DNA of 51,625 nt from Desulfobacterales bacterium (GCA_023129535.1 JAGMBW010000040.1:1-51625); one strand, 5' to 3'; shown: positions 5,166 through 51,391, counted from the first letter of the stretch. The notes: generated by a model from the letters alone, not told the origin. Program-made: numbers and translations.

Positions 5166-5369
5166 GCAAAGCGCAGAGCGCATAGAGCATAGCGCAAAGC
5201 GCATAGAGCAGAGCGCATAGAGCAAAGCGCAAAGCGCAGAGCGCATAGAGCATAGAGCAAAGCGCAGAGCGCATAGAGCGAAGCGAAAGAACAAAGAATT
5301 CCGACGCCATGCGCTATGCGTAAAATAACGAATAACGAATAACGGATAACGAATAACGGATAACGGATA
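5166..5369. repeat. About 17 copies of 7-mer GCANAGM (5166-5284), short reverse arm CGCYATG (5305-5320), then an RATAACG array (5324-5369)
   Basis: Read directly between pilS and lysS. Confidence 0.95.
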
Positions 5370-6855: not shown

Positions 6856-6997
6856 TCATTGGTGAATACTGGTAATTGGAGTATTGGAGTGATGGAGTAC
6901 TGGAGTGATGGGTTTAGAGGAACAGAAAAAACAATTTTTACCGCTTTTACCAGCCACTACTCCAGTACTCCAGTACTCCAATACTCCATTACTCCAT
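6843..6997. repeat. TTRGTCA stub over the lysS stop, then inverted element TGGAGTNN (6877-6912) / 46-bp core / NNACTCCA (6954-6997)
   Basis: Read directly; the core is homologous to 9051-9096 in inverted orientation. Confidence 0.95.
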
Positions 6998-8985: not shown

Positions 8986-9130
8986 TGGAGTGTTGGAGTA
9001 CTGGAGTGTTGGAGTACTGGAGTGTTGGAGTACTGGAGTGTTGGAGTACTGGATGGTAAAAGCGGGGAAAATTATTCTTGTTATTGCTCTAAACCCATTA
9101 CTCCATTACTTCATTACTCCATTACTCCAA
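8986..9130. repeat. Inverted element (TGGAGTGT TGGAGTAC)x4 / 46-bp core / ATTACTCC array
   Basis: Read directly between lolD and bamA. Confidence 0.95.
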
Positions 9131-12606: not shown

Positions 12607-12818
12607 CACGAAAACACGAAATAGGGAAAGCACGAAAGTAACATCTCAATCCATTTACCCCAAGTTATTGAGAAGATACGCACGAAAGACCTAACGACCT
12701 AAAGATAAAGCCCTTTTTCGTGCTTTCGTACTTTGCGGCGTTCGCCTTGAGAACAGTACGTGCTTTCGTGATTGGAGTTTAGTGAACGAATAACGAATAA
12801 CGAATAACGAATAACGAA
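12607..12818. repeat. Inverted element CACGAAAN (12607-12688) / NTTTCGTG (12716-12770) followed by an AATAACG array (12785-12818)
   Basis: Read directly; same family as 46793-47293. Confidence 0.92.
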
Positions 12819-15297: not shown

Positions 15298-16101
15298 CAA
15301 AAGATTGGACTCATCGCGGGGAGCGGACAGTTCCCCGGCATTTTTGCAGAGACGGCCGGCAAAAAAGGGTTAAAGGTTTATGCAATAGCCCATGTGGATG
15401 AAACCGACACCCGACTGGAAACCCTCGTGGAGGCGATAAGGTGGGTGAAGATCGGTCAATTGAAACAAATTATCGCATTTTTCAAAGAAAATGGGGTCAG
15501 GGATGCAGCAATGGCTGGGGCCATTACCAAGACAAAGATGTTTTCAAAGGTGAGGCCAGATTTGAAGGCCCTGAAGGTCCTCTCTACTGTGGATCACACG
15601 CAGGATGACGGGCTCCTGCGGGCCTTTGCCAGCGAGATGGAAAAAGAGGGAATAACCATTTGCGCTTCTACTTTCTTGCTTCCCGAACTCCTGGCAAAAA
15701 AGGGATGCTTGACACGGCGGAAGCCGACAAAGGCCGAGATGGCCGATGTGCGTTTCGGGTGGGGTATCGTAAAAGAGATTGGAAGGTTAGATATCGGGCA
15801 GTGTGTGGTGGTTCGGGGCGGTTCTGTGATGGCGGTAGAAGCAATAGACGGCACTGATGCGACGATAAGACGAGGAGGAAAACTCGGAAAGGGAAAAGCG
15901 GTGGTGGTAAAAGCCAGCAAACCCAATCAGGATATGCGATTTGATGTGCCTGCCGTCGGGCTCAGGACCATTCGAGTTATGCGCGATGTTCGAGCTTCGG
16001 TTTTGGCGGTTGAAGCCGGCAAAACAGTGGTCTTTGACAGGCAAGAAATGGTTGCACTGGCCGATCAAAGCGGAATTGCGATTATAGGTGTAGAGCAGTG
16101 A
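15289..16101 (+). CDS. lpxI: UDP-2,3-diacylglucosamine diphosphatase LpxI
   Basis: IGLIAGSGQFP, DIGQ, AVEAIDGTD and KPNQDMRFDVP. Confidence 0.92.
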   Translation: MTNQKIGLIAGSGQFPGIFAETAGKKGLKVYAIAHVDETDTRLETLVEAIRWVKIGQLKQIIAFFKENGVRDAAMAGAITKTKMFSKVRPDLKALKVLSTVDHTQDDGLLRAFASEMEKEGITICASTFLLPELLAKKGCLTRRKPTKAEMADVRFGWGIVKEIGRLDIGQCVVVRGGSVMAVEAIDGTDATIRRGGKLGKGKAVVVKASKPNQDMRFDVPAVGLRTIRVMRDVRASVLAVEAGKTVVFDRQEMVALADQSGIAIIGVEQ

Positions 16102-16380
16102 GCTAAAGTGCCTAAAGTGAGCTAAAGTGAGCTAAAGTTAAGGAGTTTAAGAAACTTTTTTGAAAATTGGTCTTATTCTATTAGCCACTGGTTACATTAG
16201 ATTGGTTGAATTGGTTTCTAATCAATCGAACCAACGGAACCAATAAAACCAAATAAACGGCATTTCATTTTTTTAACTTTAGGCACTTTAGGTCACCCTG
16301 GCCCAGACCTGGATTAACAGCATTATACCTTACAAGAAGCTGAAGCGCCAGGGCGGGCTTTAGCTCACTTTAGGCACTTA
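16098..16380. repeat. Nested inverted arrays: outer CTAAAGTG 9/10-mer / CACTTTAG, inner 9-mer TTGGTT / AACCAA, with a 62-bp insert in the right arm
   Basis: Read directly; the lpxI TGA is in the first unit. Confidence 0.93.
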
Positions 16381-27349: not shown

Positions 27350-27541
27350 AGTGCCTAAAGTGAACTAAAGTGCCTAAAGTGCCTAAAGTTTAATGATGAA
27401 AACATTTGTAATTCAGGAATTGTGAATTGATGAGGTGAAGGAATTCTCTTTGATTTTAAACCCTTAATGCATGAATCCCTAAATTTTGCTCACTTTAGCT
27501 AACTTTAGGCACTTTAGCTCACTTTAGCTCACTTTAGTCAC
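27350..27541. repeat. Inverted CTAAAGTG (27350-27390) / CACTTTAG (27487-27541) arrays with a degenerate inner GAATT / AATCC pair
   Basis: Read directly. Confidence 0.92.
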
Positions 27542-27548
27542 TGGTTTT

Positions 27549-28612: not shown

Positions 28613-28786
28613 CCCAAACTTCGCAAGACTCTCAAGATGTCATTGCGAGGAGCGGAGCGACGTGGCAATCTCGGTACGCCACAAAGACGGCGGACTTTCA
28701 GCACCTGGAGATTGCTTCGTCCACCTGCGGTGGACTCGCAATGACAGGATTGGTCATGTTTTTCAAATGACCTTGCGAAATTCGGG
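28613..28786. mobile_element. MITE/REP-like element with outer IR cccaaacttcgcaag / cttgcgaaattcggg and inner tgtcattgcgag / ctcgcaatgaca palindrome
   Basis: Outer IR 13/15, inner IR 12/12; the inner part is related to 45325-45359 and 48485-48619. Confidence 0.7.
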
Positions 28787-45125: not shown

Positions 45126-45250
45126 TTCATTAGATCAACAAGCAAGCGTCGAGTCTTTATGAAAATCCTTATTCCCTGATAAAAAGCCGGGCAGGTAGAG
45201 GCCGCACAATGAATAGCATATTGAAAGCAGCGTCGCGCCCGTGGCCCAGA

Positions 45251-45393
45251 CCCTGGCCCAGACCCGGATCATAGGCTTGGCAGATTAATTCAAGCACGTC
45301 GCGCCAGGGCGGGCTCCAGGCGATGAGATTGCCACGTCGCTTCGCTCCTCGCAATGACAGCAAACGAACTACCCGGACTTATTGGGAACTTAC
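45251..45393. mobile_element. Left-truncated copy of the 48456-48665 MITE
   Basis: Near-identical to 48510-48626 and ends in a matching terminal repeat (ccggacttattgggaacttac). Confidence 0.8.
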
Positions 45394-45809
45394 TCTTCAA
45401 CCGGGAACCGTGAACGTTGAACCGCTCAATCTAGGTTATAAGACGGCATCACTTCAAGGGCCTGTTCATTCACTGCATCTACGATCCCCTGGAGCCATTT
45501 GGTTCCCATAGCTGACCAGATCTTGTCCAATCCCTGGATGACTGCCACATAGCCAGTCCCTTTTTCCTTAATATGTTTGTTGAGCCGCTCCAAAAAAGGT
45601 TCCCGGACAGAGGGATCACCCGGGTTCTCCAGGCTGCTTGACAAAACGGCCTCCACGTCCTGCCACCTGTCAAACAATTCCTGCTTTTGCCTCAGGAGTT
45701 TCTCGTTTGCTTGCTCCTTCACGATCGCTCGGTATCTCCTGGCCGATTCAGGCATCTTCTGGGCCAGTGCCTTAAAGCGCTCGATGCGTTCCCTAATGGC
45801 CATGTCTAG

Positions 45810-45927
45810 GAGCGTGTCCGAGAATGGGAGACCCTCTTTTTCGTATACAACATAGAGTGTATCTCCTGCCAGATTGGCACAACATAATGTGGTCAAAATC
45901 TCGAAACCTCTATTCTCGGACAGCCTC
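45810..45927. mobile_element. 118-bp MITE with 16-bp TIRs and a CTAG target duplication
   Basis: gagcgtgtccgagaat / attctcggacagcctc (14/16); CTAG at 45806-45809 and 45928-45931. Confidence 0.9.
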
Positions 45928-46098
45928 CTAGCTTGTCCAGGACACCTTCATACAACATCTCAGCCATGGAGTCGCCTCTGAAAAACAGGGAGCGAACCTC
46001 CAAATACCAGCGCCTGAGTGCCACGAGGTTCGCAATGTAATTGATGTTGTTGATTGCCCGCCTTTTAATGTGCCAATAAATACCTGGGGAAAAACTCG

Positions 46099-46218
46099 TA
46101 AACCCCGCAGCCTCCGGCCCATAGGGGCCTACGCACTCTCCGAGGCGTAGGCTCGTGCCTCTACGAGCCGGAGGCCGGAGGGCAAGCTGCGGGGAATGCG
46201 CTCGTTTTTGCGGTTCAA
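46099..46218. repeat. Nested GC-rich palindromic insertion lying in frame in the GlmU-like gene
   Basis: ccccgcag / ctgcgggg enclosing cctccggc / gccggagg enclosing ggctcgt / acgagcc; boundaries approximate. Confidence 0.75.
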
Positions 46219-46792
46219 CACACTGGCGAGACGGGTCTTGGGCCAGTATGAGGTTGCTGCCATTAAGGAGGTCTGTTCGACAAACAATCCCTGCCGGAAT
46301 GACCATGCCGTATTCCACCCGTACAGGCCCAACCAGGCCCCCCTGACCTCCCAGAAAGATGGGGGGCTGATTCAGCATCACGCCCCGAGGGACGTCGCCA
46401 ATCAAAGAAGGGGTGGCTTTATCCTGGTTCGGTCCTATCTGGCAATCTTCGACCGTCACCGGTCCCTCATAGCCGAGTCTGGCCCCAGGCATGATCAGGG
46501 TCTTTTGGCCCAAGATCTTGCAGCCCGGATAAATAACCACGCCATCGCCTGCAATGCGATCCAGGCTAACCTTTTCTCCGATGAACACACTGTGGGGATT
46601 AGGTATGGCGACCCCTTTTTGAACAAGCCGCTTTACTCTGGCCCTGGATTCAGAATGCATTCGAGTAACCCCCTCCGCGATCACGTATACTGCGCACGGC
46701 CATAAATTGAAATCGACCCGTTGTCAAGCGCTTTCAGGAACGCAGGCCGCGTCTTAAGGTTGACACTTTGCGAAACGTTCTGTTAAAAGTTT

Positions 46793-47100
46793 TCGAGCTG
46801 TGCGATTAGGACTATTCAAATCAATCACGAAAACACGAAAGTACGTAATGTTCTCAAGGCAAACGCCGCAAAACACGAAATGAACCATACCAAAAAGATA
46901 TTCGGAATTCTGTTTGTCAAACAAGTACTGATTTATCAGCAGCTTAGCATCCTGAGAGATGAGCATAAGAATGAACCTGCAAGAATCTAACAATCAAGCA
47001 AGTCTTTAGGGCCTTTTTCGTGCTTTCGTCTTTTCGTGCTTTCGTGATAGTTCTTTTGAGCGCTTTTGCTTAGAATTCAATATGTAACCGTACAGATCGA
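46793..47100. mobile_element. 308-bp element with imperfect 17-bp terminal IRs and internal CACGAAA / TTTCGTG arrays
   Basis: Ends tcgagctgtgcgattag / gtaaccgtacagatcga, flanked by AAGTTT on both sides. Confidence 0.8.
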
Positions 47101-47106
47101 AAGTTT

Positions 47107-47293
47107 TGGAGCTGTGCAGTTACGAAACTAGTCAAAATTAATCACGAAAACACGAAAGTACGAAAACACGAAATAAGACCCGGAAACTAAGTTGCTAACG
47201 TTCTTTTTCGTGCTTTCAATCTTTCGTGCTTTCGTGATAGTTCTTTTTTTTGCTTCTCTGAGACTAAATCCAATATCTAACCGCACAGGTCGA
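47107..47293. mobile_element. 187-bp second tandem copy of the same element
   Basis: Ends tggagctgtgcagttac / ctaaccgcacaggtcga, flanked by AAGTTT on both sides. Confidence 0.8.
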
Positions 47294-47310
47294 AAGTTTT
47301 TAAGAGGTGT

Positions 47311-48414
47311 GTGATTTTGGGAGAGACGACACGTAACCGGCTGGCAAGATTCAGGGCACGCCTCCACGACCAGGCCCTTGATACCTTCTTGGTATTACAG
47401 GACGAGAACCGTCGTTATTTGAGCGGCTTTACCGGCGAGGATGGTCAGTTTAACGAATCTGCCGGCGCCCTTTTTGTCACGTCCGAGCGGCACTTGCTTG
47501 CCACCGACTCTCGATACGAAACCCAGGCCCAGATTGAAGCGCCTGAATTTGAGATCTATCGCTACAAAGATGGCCTGGCTTCATCGTTGCCGGAAATCCT
47601 GACAATGCTCGGAGCCGAGCGTCTTGGTTTTGAAAGCGCCCGGCTATCGTATGTGCAGTTTGAGAAATTCCAGGAGCATCTGAAGAAGAAGGCCCTGGCG
47701 GTGTCTCTGGTTCCCACTGAGAACTTGATCGAAGAGCTCCGTATGACAAAGGAGCCCGGAGAGATAGAGGCGATCCAGGAATCGCTTGGTCTTTGCGAAT
47801 CAGTATTTGAAACAATTATTAACAGCCTCCGTGTTGGAGCCAGTGAGAAAGATCTGGCCTGGGCCATAGAAAAGGGTCTGCGGGAAAGTGGGGCAGAATC
47901 TGTCGCCTTCCCGCCCATTGTGGCCTCGGGGCCCAACGCTGCCCTGCCCCATGCCATCCCCACAGATCGAGCTGTGAGAGAGGGTGAGCCGATCCTGTTT
48001 GACTGGGGGGCACGCCTGAACGGCTACTGTTCGGATATTTCCCGCACCATTGTGCTTGGCCCCCCTGATGACACTTTCAAAGACGTCTATCAGGTGGTGC
48101 GCGACGCGCAATTGATGGCAACAGAAGCGATCAAGCCTGGAATAAGCACACAGGTTGTGGATAAGATTGCACGAGATCATATTGCTGCCAAGGGGTTTGG
48201 CGACCACTTTGGACACGGTCTTGGACACGGCGTGGGATTGGCGGTCCATGAAAAACCGAATCTGAGTCCACTCCGGCCGATGAATCTGGAAATAGGAATG
48301 GTTACCACTGTGGAACCAGGTATCTACCTGCCTGGATGGGGCGGCGTGCGCCTGGAAAATATGGTGGTTGTAAAAGAAGATGGAGCGGTCGTCTTGAACA
48401 GGTATCCGGTTTAA
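47311..48414 (+). CDS. Xaa-Pro aminopeptidase (M24B family)
   Basis: YLSGFTG, DWGA...SDISRT, HGLGHGVG..HE, TVEPG and GVRLE. Confidence 0.92.
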   Translation: MILGETTRNRLARFRARLHDQALDTFLVLQDENRRYLSGFTGEDGQFNESAGALFVTSERHLLATDSRYETQAQIEAPEFEIYRYKDGLASSLPEILTMLGAERLGFESARLSYVQFEKFQEHLKKKALAVSLVPTENLIEELRMTKEPGEIEAIQESLGLCESVFETIINSLRVGASEKDLAWAIEKGLRESGAESVAFPPIVASGPNAALPHAIPTDRAVREGEPILFDWGARLNGYCSDISRTIVLGPPDDTFKDVYQVVRDAQLMATEAIKPGISTQVVDKIARDHIAAKGFGDHFGHGLGHGVGLAVHEKPNLSPLRPMNLEIGMVTTVEPGIYLPGWGGVRLENMVVVKEDGAVVLNRYPV

Positions 48415-48421
48415 TGGACAT

Positions 48422-48757
48422 AACATTTATCATTTAACATTTATCATCGATCATTGTAAGTTCTCAAAAGGCTCGGTTTTTTTCGTCATTGCGAGCAGAG
48501 CGAAGCAATCCCTGGCCCAGACCGGGCTTCATAGGTTTGGCAGATTAATTCAAGCACATCGCGCCAGGGCGGGCTCCAGACCATAAGATTGCCACGTCGC
48601 TTCGCTCCTCGCAATGACAGCAAACGCCAGTGTCAAGGAATTACCCGAACTTTTTGAGAAGTTACCGATCATTCCCCATTGAGTATATACGACGGGAAAT
48701 TTACCAGTACCCAATGACAAATGACAAATGACAAATGATAAATGATAAATGATAAAT
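48422..48757. repeat. Inverted CATTTAW (48422-48455) / AAATGAY (48711-48757) element interrupted by a MITE
   Basis: Read directly; the xerD ATG is in the last unit. Confidence 0.9.
48456..48665. mobile_element. 210-bp MITE with 21-bp TIRs and an 8-bp target duplication CGATCATT
   Basis: gtaagttctcaaaaggctcgg / ccgaactttttgagaagttac (18/21); CGATCATT at 48448-48455 and 48666-48673. Confidence 0.9.
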
Positions 48758-49648
48758 TCCCTGGATCAGCTGGCAGACCAGTTCATCAACTACCTGGTGG
48801 TGGAAAAAGGGCTTTCAAGAAATACCGTTGTTGCTTACAGCAGAGACTTGATCTTGTATCTGGATTTGTTGAGGGCACATGGTATTTCCAATATCGTCCA
48901 TGCTGACACCACCCTTGTTCTGAAGCACCTGATTGACTTAAGAGATGCAGGGCTTGGGCCCAGGAGCAGAGCCAGGCATCTGGTGACGCTGAGGGGGTTC
49001 TATCGTTTCTTGCTTCAGGAAAAGGTGCTTGAGACCAATCCGGCTCGGGTGGTGGACATTCCAAAGTCCGGACGAAGACTACCTGCTGTTCTAAAGGTGG
49101 AAGAAGTGGTAAGGCTTCTCGAGGGACCTGATACTTCGAAACCTCTGGGGGTGCGAGATGCAGCCATGCTGGAACTTTTGTATGCAGCGGGTCTTCGGGT
49201 CTCAGAGCTTATCAAAGTGGGAATGGCAGACATCAATCTGGAGGCCTGTTTTGTCCTTGTTCTCGGCAAGGGGTCTAAGGAGCGAGTGGTGCCCATTGGC
49301 CAGATTGCTAAGGAAAAGGTCAATGTGTACCTTGCATCAGGACGTCCGGTTCTATTGAAGGCTCGGCCGAGCCGGTATCTCTTTGTAACGCGTTCGGCGA
49401 CCCCCATGACACGCCAGGGATTCTGGAAACTGCTGAAGAAATATGCCCTAATGGTGGGGATTTCCTGCAAAATTGCCCCACACACCCTTCGACATTCCTT
49501 TGCTACTCACCTTTTGGAACGGGGAGCAGATCTCCGCTCAGTACAAGTGATGTTGGGCCATGTGGATATTAGCACCACCCAAATTTATACCCATGTTGCC
49601 CAGGAGAAACTGAAAGCGGTTCACACCCAGTATCATCCCAGGGGATAG
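48749..49648 (+). CDS. xerD: Tyrosine recombinase XerD
   Basis: VEKGLSRNT, GLRVSEL, GKGSKERVVP, TRQGFW, HTLRHSFATHLL, LGH, TQIYTHV and HPRG. Confidence 0.93.
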   Translation: MINSLDQLADQFINYLVVEKGLSRNTVVAYSRDLILYLDLLRAHGISNIVHADTTLVLKHLIDLRDAGLGPRSRARHLVTLRGFYRFLLQEKVLETNPARVVDIPKSGRRLPAVLKVEEVVRLLEGPDTSKPLGVRDAAMLELLYAAGLRVSELIKVGMADINLEACFVLVLGKGSKERVVPIGQIAKEKVNVYLASGRPVLLKARPSRYLFVTRSATPMTRQGFWKLLKKYALMVGISCKIAPHTLRHSFATHLLERGADLRSVQVMLGHVDISTTQIYTHVAQEKLKAVHTQYHPRG

Positions 49649-51314: not shown

Positions 51315-51391
51315 CGGGACGTGGCTCAGTCTGGTAGAGCACAGCGTTCGGGACGCTGGGGTCGCTGGTTCAAATCCAGTCGTCCCGACCA
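51315..51391 (+). tRNA. tRNA-Pro(CGG)
   Basis: Acceptor stem cgggacg/cgtcccg, anticodon stem cagcg/cgctg with loop ttCGGga, GGTTCAAATCC T-arm and encoded CCA. Confidence 0.96.

Follow-up and report, generated by a model that had tools for sequence, protein, structure and literature searches.

Two candidate miniature inverted-repeat elements at a single 8-bp target in a Desulfobacterales genome, with a tentative link from their hairpin core to GxxExxY nuclease genes

Introduction

The insertion-sequence families IS6/IS26, IS1595, ISL3 and IS66 make 8-bp target duplications, and eukaryotic foldback, hAT and CACTA elements carry terminal inverted repeats followed by inverted subterminal arrays of short repeats, with an 8-bp duplication in the case of hAT. 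Xer/dif-type sites and integron attC consist of inverted arms around a short asymmetric centre. Two bacterial systems are also relevant: miniature transposable elements bearing inverted repeats, or MITEs, one of which contains a minisatellite in Porphyromonas gingivalis (PMC4596501; review PMC3184786), and intergenic direct repeats of the heptamer TAACTGA in Beggiatoaceae, Cyanobacteria and Bacteroidetes (PMC4679880). This study analyzed a 51.6-kb stretch of DNA from a Desulfobacterales bacterium (GCA_023129535.1 JAGMBW010000040.1:1-51625; hereafter the window), in which two adjacent non-coding elements, El1 and El2, lie just upstream of a peptidase gene. On balance, El1 and El2 appear to be two MITEs of one family that inserted successively into one 8-bp target. 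All positions are counted along the whole window, and L numbers denote loci from other genomes or plasmids.

El1 and El2 resemble the IS6/IS26, IS1595, ISL3 and IS66 families in combining an 8-bp duplication with short terminal inverted repeats, a likeness drawn from general family properties; with no transposase found, they cannot be assigned to any one family. They may also be likened to foldback, hAT and CACTA elements, in architecture only, since those belong to another domain of hosts and are not known to have a protein in common with El1 and El2. Bacterial MITEs share with El1 and El2 their small size, the lack of coding capacity, the presence of terminal inverted repeats and of a target duplication on the flanks, an intergenic location and internal tandem repeats (PMC4596501, PMC3184786); the differences are that the tandem repeats of El1 and El2 form two facing octamer arrays, that their body is a foldback hairpin, that the CACGAAA hairpin also exists without terminal repeats in several phyla and that El1 and El2 have no known parent insertion sequence. 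The TAACTGA repeats likewise have 7-8-nt units in intergenic arrays that often abut start codons, with the same unit in distant phyla and no known transfer mechanism, whereas their arrays are almost all direct (1 inverted set of 170) and those of El1 and El2 face each other and are bounded by terminal repeats and a duplication (PMC4679880). PMC4679880 contains no mention of Desulfonema, Deltaproteobacteria or Planctomycetes. As a MITE pair, El1 and El2 would be objects of a known kind belonging to a new family, while the link to nuclease cassettes discussed below is possibly new.

Structure of the locus

The locus comprises two bounded elements with inverted-repeat ends and no coding capacity, bordered by three identical 8-mers. 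A preliminary description of this DNA had presented the arrangement as AAGTTT-element-AAGTTT-element-AAGTTT, with elements of 308 and 187 bp. The three AAGTTT copies (46787-92, 47101-06 and 47294-99, read directly from the sequence), the paired ends and the facing CACGAAA/TTTCGTG arrays are all present, and the division into two bounded elements stands; the borders, however, fit better as an 8-bp sequence, AAAGTTTT, which is the longest direct repeat found at all three of them (46786-93, 47100-07 and 47293-300), so that El1 measures 306 bp and El2 185 bp. AAAGTTTT occurs seven times in the window on both strands together, three of these at the element borders. The features of the locus are as follows.

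46786..46793, no strand: direct repeat copy 1, AAAGTTTT, putative target duplication left of El1
46794..47099, minus strand (that of the better-folding RNA): El1, 306 bp, non-coding
46794..46809, plus strand: El1 left terminal inverted repeat, CGAGCTGTGCGATTAG, 12/16 against the right end
46824..46848, plus strand: El1 left CACGAAA octamer array, from motif and repeat scans
46843..46872, plus strand: El1 interior module, without counterpart in El2, common to window positions 12732-12761 (reverse strand, 28/30) and L118
47015..47048, plus strand: El1 right TTTCGTG array, complement of the El1 left array
47084..47099, minus strand: El1 right terminal inverted repeat, from an end-pattern match
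47100..47107, no strand: direct repeat copy 2, AAAGTTTT, common to El1 and El2
47108..47292, minus strand: El2, 185 bp, non-coding, oriented as El1
47108..47123, plus strand: El2 left terminal inverted repeat, GGAGCTGTGCAGTTAC, from an end-pattern match
47141..47173, plus strand: El2 left CACGAAA array, 4 units, from motif and repeat scans
47206..47238, plus strand: El2 right TTTCGTG array, from motif and repeat scans
47277..47292, minus strand: El2 right terminal inverted repeat, 15-mer TAACCGCACAGGTCG identical in L102
47293..47300, no strand: direct repeat copy 3, AAAGTTTT, right of El2

The terminal inverted repeats are 16 nt long and imperfect, with 12 of 16 positions matching in each element (binomial P 3.8e-5 each). 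Across the whole window, a degenerate end pattern at 0-1 mismatch recovers solely the four ends of the two elements (46793+, 47085-, 47107+ and 47278-); the remaining seven matches have 2-3 mismatches, with approximately 4.8 expected by chance. At this level of stringency, the earlier statement that no other array in the window has defined ends holds.

The heptamer CACGAAA is three times over-represented in the window (22 copies observed vs. 7.3 expected), and 12 of the 22 copies fall within the roughly 500 bp of El1 and El2, where they recur with an 8-nt period in arrays facing their complements. All four arms match the 17-mer ATCACGAAAR-CACGAAA, and membership in the hairpin family was defined by a facing complement, an A-rich left flank and a T-rich right flank. 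Between the two elements, the arrays next to the ends are 91-94% alike. The elements are poorer in G+C than the window as a whole (38.9% vs. 48.4%) and contain seven open reading frames (ORFs) of at least 25 amino acids, with no Pfam match for the three that were tested. One ORF of 36 amino acids with an ATG start, at 46880-46990 on the plus strand inside the El1 interior, matches no family and is unlikely to be a gene.

Related elements in other genomes

Scanning genome contigs with the 17-mer arm common to all four arrays yielded at least 123 loci in at least 87 assemblies; the window's own locus is not among them, and copies with diverged arrays as well as array-less ends fall outside a scan keyed in this way. 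Desulfobacterota or 'delta' records account for 77 of the 123 listed loci and Planctomycetota for 23, the remaining listed loci coming from Acidobacteriota, Armatimonadota and others. The end sequence of El1 and El2 was found at 4 of the 123 listed loci (L102, L034, L108 and L030), in four other assemblies; the ends are therefore not unique to this locus, and the outcome that the preliminary description had named as its refutation did not occur. When the 15-mer of the El2 right end was searched with mismatches over the listed loci and the window (227 kb), all seven matches with up to 2 mismatches lay beside CACGAAA arrays, namely the four window ends, L102 (0 mismatches), L034 (1) and L108 (1). 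The end copy of L030 is more degenerate, with 4 mismatches; four matches that have 3 mismatches and no array beside them appear to be chance. The alignment reveals a common layout that runs from the array through a GATAATTCTTTT-like stretch and approximately 30 nt to the end and then the flank.

Among these relatives, L102 is a complete copy of 317 bp, with terminal repeats matching at 10 of 16 positions and with CACTTTTT on both sides, in direct and not complementary orientation. El1, El2 and L102 have the same spacing between array and direct repeat, which begins at a distance of 30-33 nt from ATCACG on the left and of 51 nt from GTGAT on the right; chance direct repeats of at least 8 nt, at unrelated offsets, were seen in 4 of 23 other loci scanned. 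An 8-bp duplication with copy-specific sequence is thus present at two independent sites, AAAGTTTT in the window and CACTTTTT at L102, and the homologous ends elsewhere border on different flanks, the right flanks being AAAATTCG at L034, CAAATTGC at L108 and TTTTTTTT at L030. Three of the five distinct flanks have an AAANTT core in common. The preliminary description had proposed that a constant AAGTTT flank would speak for site-specific recombination and variable flanks for a target duplication; the comparison was carried out here and the flanks proved variable, which argues for a transposase-type target duplication and not for recombination at a constant AAGTTT core. No cargo genes were found in L102 and L108, which carry the terminal repeats, and no recombinase was found in the end-bearing loci. 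A BLAST search of positions 46780-47310 in distant mode against plasmid and phage collections gave no match.

The CACGAAA hairpin and GxxExxY cassettes

Beyond the few copies with terminal repeats, the hairpin itself is widespread. A facing partner array lies within 700 nt at 60 of the 123 listed loci under a strict rule, and within 300 nt at 58 of these 60; 20 listed loci are compact hairpins, with 50-130 nt between perfect 17-mer arms. Direct repeats of at least 7 nt are absent from the borders of most compact hairpins, so the duplication is a property of the form bounded by terminal repeats and of L083 (below), not of all hairpins. A GGTTCCGG-TTGTCCGGGTTAGG-like motif often adjoins CACGAAA hairpins (L064, L104, L039, L032, L016, L122, L084, L113 and L099) and may be a different outer module.

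Recurrent neighbours of the hairpins were sought by clustering 934 six-frame segments of at least 70 amino acids from the locus flanks. With the overlapping pair L076/L077 set aside, the sole cluster with more than two loci was a GxxExxY protein (L083, L071 and L012), identified by TIGR04256 at 1e-43 and by PF13366 (PDDEXK_3) at 5e-41. Gene orientation at 66 loci with long flanks covered all orientation classes and was left unused because ORF calling was crude. A separate, protein-only search of plasmids returned eight GxxExxY genes, four of them wrapped in facing arrays of 8-9-nt units. The array-associated genes are the following.

L083, 301-796: GxxExxY ORF among CACGAAA arrays
L071, about 1000-1700: GxxExxY ORF among CACGAAA arrays
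L012, 440-1030: GxxExxY ORF among CACGAAA arrays
L124, 408-858; L126, 250-861; L129, 325-796; L130, 362-798: plasmid GxxExxY genes in facing purine-rich 8-9-mer arrays (Bacteroidota, Gemmatimonadota, Alphaproteobacteria)

At L083 the ORF fills the hairpin loop exactly, the left array ending 6 nt before the ATG and the right array starting just after the stop codon, and an 8-bp direct repeat, TGAAAAAT, stands at both borders of the cassette; judged from the sequence, removal of the cassette would restore an overlapping stop/start of the neighbouring genes. The ORF of L071 is surrounded by several nested arrays, and that of L012 lies between directly oriented arrays, beside a compact hairpin. 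L083 (a 'delta' record) and L012 (Pirellulales) have arrays identical at 33 of 34 positions, and their ORFs share 57% identity, in nucleotides and in protein alike. One assembly holds both the ORF-bearing L083 and an ORF-less compact copy, L099.

The units of the plasmid arrays differ: CACAGAGA in Bernardetia (facing arrays 86% complementary over 28 nt), CGCAGAGG in Gemmatirosa (100% over 25 nt) and CACGCGAAG in Sphingomonas (92% over 25 nt), with arrays that are 90% complementary over 30 nt in Bacteroides finegoldii. Of the other four plasmid genes, that of Treponema has a single 16-nt inverted repeat, those of a Fusobacteria bacterium and Prevotella have flanking direct repeats and that of Persicobacter has none. 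Several of the plasmid genes sit between co-oriented housekeeping genes, e.g., fabD and fabG.

The GxxExxY family is large: with E limited to 1e-3 it counts 19,638 cluster representatives, and with E limited to 1e-10 it still counts 5,158. An alignment of 48 sequences shows no variation at G42, G44, E47 and Y50 and conservation of 90% or more at D86, E96 and K98. The structure model is confident (predicted local distance difference test, pLDDT, 90.8), and its matches, at a template modelling (TM) score of about 0.5, are all to generic PD-(D/E)XK cores, among them those of Cas4, lambda exonuclease and RecE; the sequence had no match in the PDB at E up to 1, only weak partial matches in PADLOC and none in PHROGs. 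CACGAAA arrays are translated in the N-terminus of 1 of 150 representatives (P0007), and other N-terminal extensions look, by eye, like translated purine-rich repeats. The literature, in the portions accessible, gave no account of a function, an activity or flanking repeats for GxxExxY/PDDEXK_3, and in one survey PDDEXK_3 is entered as 'Unknown', with a note of multiple transfers between divisions; a literature search on heptamer or tandem repeats in Desulfobacter gave nothing relevant. Within the window, tblastn detected no GxxExxY remnant beyond array-encoded peptides, and El1 and El2 are ORF-less in this respect.

Origin of the tandem pair

In the proposed mechanism, El1 and El2 are non-autonomous MITEs of the foldback type, each with imperfect terminal inverted repeats of 16 nt, a short subterminal spacer, CACGAAAN octamer arrays that face each other to form a long hairpin, and a variable middle. 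A transposase supplied in trans would cut with an 8-bp stagger and thereby duplicate the target. The first insertion would have struck AAAGTTTT within an A/T-rich near-palindrome, TTAAAAGTTTTTAA, the would-be empty site between a divergent gene for a 263-amino-acid protein and the ribosome-binding site of the peptidase gene; later, an element of a different sublineage would have entered one AAAGTTTT copy, yielding target-El1-target-El2-target. The order of the two insertions is presumed, as are an influence on the transcription or translation of the neighbouring genes and a bias of insertion, either towards A/T-rich AAANTT-like sites or towards the edge of a copy already in place.

Several observations weigh against this mechanism. 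Neither an autonomous copy nor a transposase with these ends was found: there was none among the 41 window ORFs scanned, and beyond the window the search covered the loci listed from a genome scan keyed on the arrays and the plasmid and phage collections. The evidence for a variable duplication comes from one complete outside copy and three right flanks, and the ends are present at just 4 of the 123 listed loci and at one locus in the 51.6-kb window. Left ends are less conserved than right ends (10-12 vs. 13-15 of 16 positions), and AAAGTTTT is nearly self-complementary and could, from the window alone, be read as part of a palindrome. A second insertion into exactly the same 8-mer needs strong targeting, which is assumed here and without which a second strike would be improbable.

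A rival to two successive insertions is a single insertion followed by tandem duplication of the element with its target, through unequal exchange or slippage between AAAGTTTT copies, and by later divergence with replacement or deletion of the interiors. Such a course would explain without any targeting assumption why the three target copies are identical, why the elements are co-oriented and directly adjacent and why their end-proximal arrays are so alike, and identical 8-mers beside 72-79% ends are conceivable after an old duplication, for which reason this course is kept in consideration as an unlikely one. It accords less well with ends and subterminal parts that are only 72-79% alike beside 24 of 24 identical target bases. 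In the right 56-61 nt, El2 shares 81% identity with L030, a locus of another genome, and 72% with El1 (for the left ends of El1 and El2 the figure is 79%). The interior module of El1, which El2 lacks, is one that other members of the family carry. These affinities to different relatives favour two insertions, and in this the preference of the preliminary description for sequential integration is borne out, although the samples, of about 60 nt, are short and not decisive. On the model suggested by the same description, a site-specific tyrosine recombinase would integrate and excise the elements, with AAGTTT as a constant core and inverted binding arms on either side of it. The 17-6-17 geometry of the junction, with inverted arms and a short asymmetric centre, does resemble tyrosine-recombinase core sites, and a tyrosine recombinase gene lies 1.4 kb downstream (48749-49648); however, any two abutting inverted-repeat ends produce such a palindrome, and it arises here because a right end and a left end meet across a shared duplication. 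The core varies between copies, as CACTTTTT on both sides of L102 and the three further right flanks indicate, and the arms are transposon ends. The sole recombinase in the window is a housekeeping XerD equivalog (358 bits vs. a cut-off of 329.6), and copies bounded by the terminal repeats have neither cargo nor a recombinase gene. A recombinase-driven origin is therefore extremely improbable.

Two further readings set mobility by classical transposition aside. Instead of mobile elements, El1 and El2 could be duplicates of a hairpin with a structured-RNA or regulatory role (a 5' leader for the 263-amino-acid gene, a processing site or a terminator, for example), with AAAGTTTT as the stem base. 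Against shuffles, both elements fold far better than expected, and best on the minus strand: El1 reaches -90.9 kcal/mol (z -4.7) on the minus strand vs. -83.7 (z -2.45) on the plus strand, and El2 -71.1 (z -6.9) vs. -58.2 (z -4.2). The strand asymmetry arises because positions that form G-U on one strand are A-C on the other, and it suggests selection on a transcript; moreover, AAAGUUUU pairs with itself on the plus strand, and in Planctomycetota copies the stem is prolonged outward by bases that differ yet are complementary, an A-run on one flank and a T-run on the opposite one. The bases of AAAGTTTT, however, are unpaired on the better-folding strand, the flanks of L102 are direct and not complementary, and where the terminal repeats are mismatched, comparison of El1 with El2 shows no compensatory changes. 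No Rfam family exceeded the threshold: over the whole window, the gathering threshold returned one tRNA and nothing else, and a permissive threshold over 46600-47450 returned just sub-threshold matches to microRNA-like hairpins. A consensus scan of 46600-47400 returned 0 promoter-like and 0 terminator-like sites. An RNA origin, which leaves the borders unexplained, is thus rather improbable; a transcript-level role after insertion, e.g., in the leader of the 263-amino-acid gene, is possible and can coexist with mobility. Alternatively, the GxxExxY PD-(D/E)XK nuclease, and not a classical transposase, could move or process the family, with El1 and El2 as ORF-less passengers. The exactly filled loop of L083, one of three listed loci out of 123 with the ORF among arrays, together with its own 8-bp repeat, speaks for this, as do the coexistence of L083 and L099 in one assembly, arrays more alike than ORFs between L083 and L012 and the conserved D and ExK positions. 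Yet the ORF-bearing copies lack the terminal repeats of El1 and El2 and the window lacks a GxxExxY gene, so the link to this locus runs via the shared hairpin only; most compact hairpins also lack the border duplication, the fold matches are of a generic Cas4- or lambda-exonuclease-like kind and the accessible literature gives no activity for the family. Movement of El1 and El2 by this nuclease is accordingly quite unlikely, and the successive insertion of two MITEs stays the favoured explanation.

Genomic setting

The window is a housekeeping chromosomal stretch that encodes Omp85/BamA-like and OmpH/skp-like proteins, lpxD, fabZ, lpxA, lpxI and lpxB, as well as an ABC exporter, lptF/G, a Kdo-transferase/lpxK fusion and heptosyltransferases. 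Other features that relate to the elements are listed below.

12607..12770, no strand: third CACGAAA facing-array locus, between the OmpH/skp-like gene and lpxD, without terminal repeats
45893..46684, minus strand: divergent gene for a 263-amino-acid protein without a Pfam family, lying in the direction in which the better-folding strand of the elements is read
46760..46765, plus strand: TTGACA hexamer upstream of the insertion site, not a full promoter by consensus scan
47311..48414, plus strand: M24 peptidase gene (Creatinase_N and Peptidase_M24), start GTG at 47311
48749-49648: tyrosine recombinase 1.4 kb downstream of the elements, passing the XerD equivalog cut-off (358 bits vs. 329.6)

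The position given earlier for the TTGACA hexamer was confirmed, and the peptidase ribosome-binding site (AAGAGG, 47302-07) directly follows direct repeat copy 3, whose end is two bases away. The XerD gene sits among housekeeping genes before purA and is preceded by an AATGACA heptamer array at 48713-57; a tRNA-Pro(CGG) lies at 51315-51391, at the window end. Beside the third CACGAAA locus, an inverted end-like match with 3 mismatches (12581-96) was taken as chance because an element ending there would fall inside the OmpH/skp-like coding region.

Nearly every intergenic region of the window contains tandem arrays with units of 7-10 nt (87 rows of Tandem Repeats Finder output), and the CACGAAA elements are one case of this genome-wide habit. 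Many of the arrays are facing complementary pairs with differing units, often abutting stop or start codons, e.g., 670-752 vs. 768-834, 6875-6911 vs. 6954-6996, 8986-9053 vs. 9095-9129, 16097-16138 vs. about 16270-16380 and 27350-27389 vs. 27484-27542. AACGAAT/AATAACG heptamer arrays at 12785-12818 and 5324-5369 stand directly before the start codons of lpxD and of a lysyl/aspartyl-type tRNA synthetase gene, respectively, and resemble the start-codon-proximal heptamer repeats of Beggiatoaceae.

A second repeat family was recognized by eye, with long inverted arms (GTCATTGCGAG...CTCGCAATGAC) around a common middle, at about 28639-28746, about 45241-45365 and about 48484-48621, the copy near 45.3 kb looking partial. 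A short CCCAGACTTATTGAGAAGTTAC-like module recurs beside other repeats, in the window at about 45373-45396 and about 48643-48666 and in Desulfobacterota at L030 (about 936-972), L017 and L100; at L030 it seems to stand in place of the left terminal repeat's outer 4 nt.

Implications

If El1 and El2 are indeed two successive insertions, one bounded form of this genome's array elements would enter by an 8-bp target duplication at A/T-rich sites and not through a recombinase core, and such insertion can put 500 bp of hairpin between the upstream region of a gene and its ribosome-binding site.

The wider lead from arrays to GxxExxY genes matters more than the locus itself. The CACGAAA hairpin and, by extension, many facing 7-10-nt intergenic arrays could be ORF-less relatives of cross-phylum selfish cassettes in which a GxxExxY nuclease gene sits in the loop of a short-unit hairpin; each nuclease lineage would have its own unit (CACGAAA, CACAGAGA, CGCAGAGG or CACGCGAAG), and the nuclease or a partner would recognize the arrays and spread or process them. 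This generalization is offered tentatively, as an unlikely proposal. The 17-mer array arm, found in at least 87 assemblies from several phyla, is far better conserved than the GxxExxY gene that it sometimes encloses. If the proposal is true, El1 and El2, with their clean ends and 8-bp duplication, would offer a first access to the chemistry by which such cassettes insert, and the unexplained short tandem arrays of Desulfobacterota, Planctomycetota, Bacteroidota and perhaps Cyanobacteria would have a source. Should the link hold, the GxxExxY family, with its 19,638 cluster representatives, would gain a testable nucleic-acid partner.

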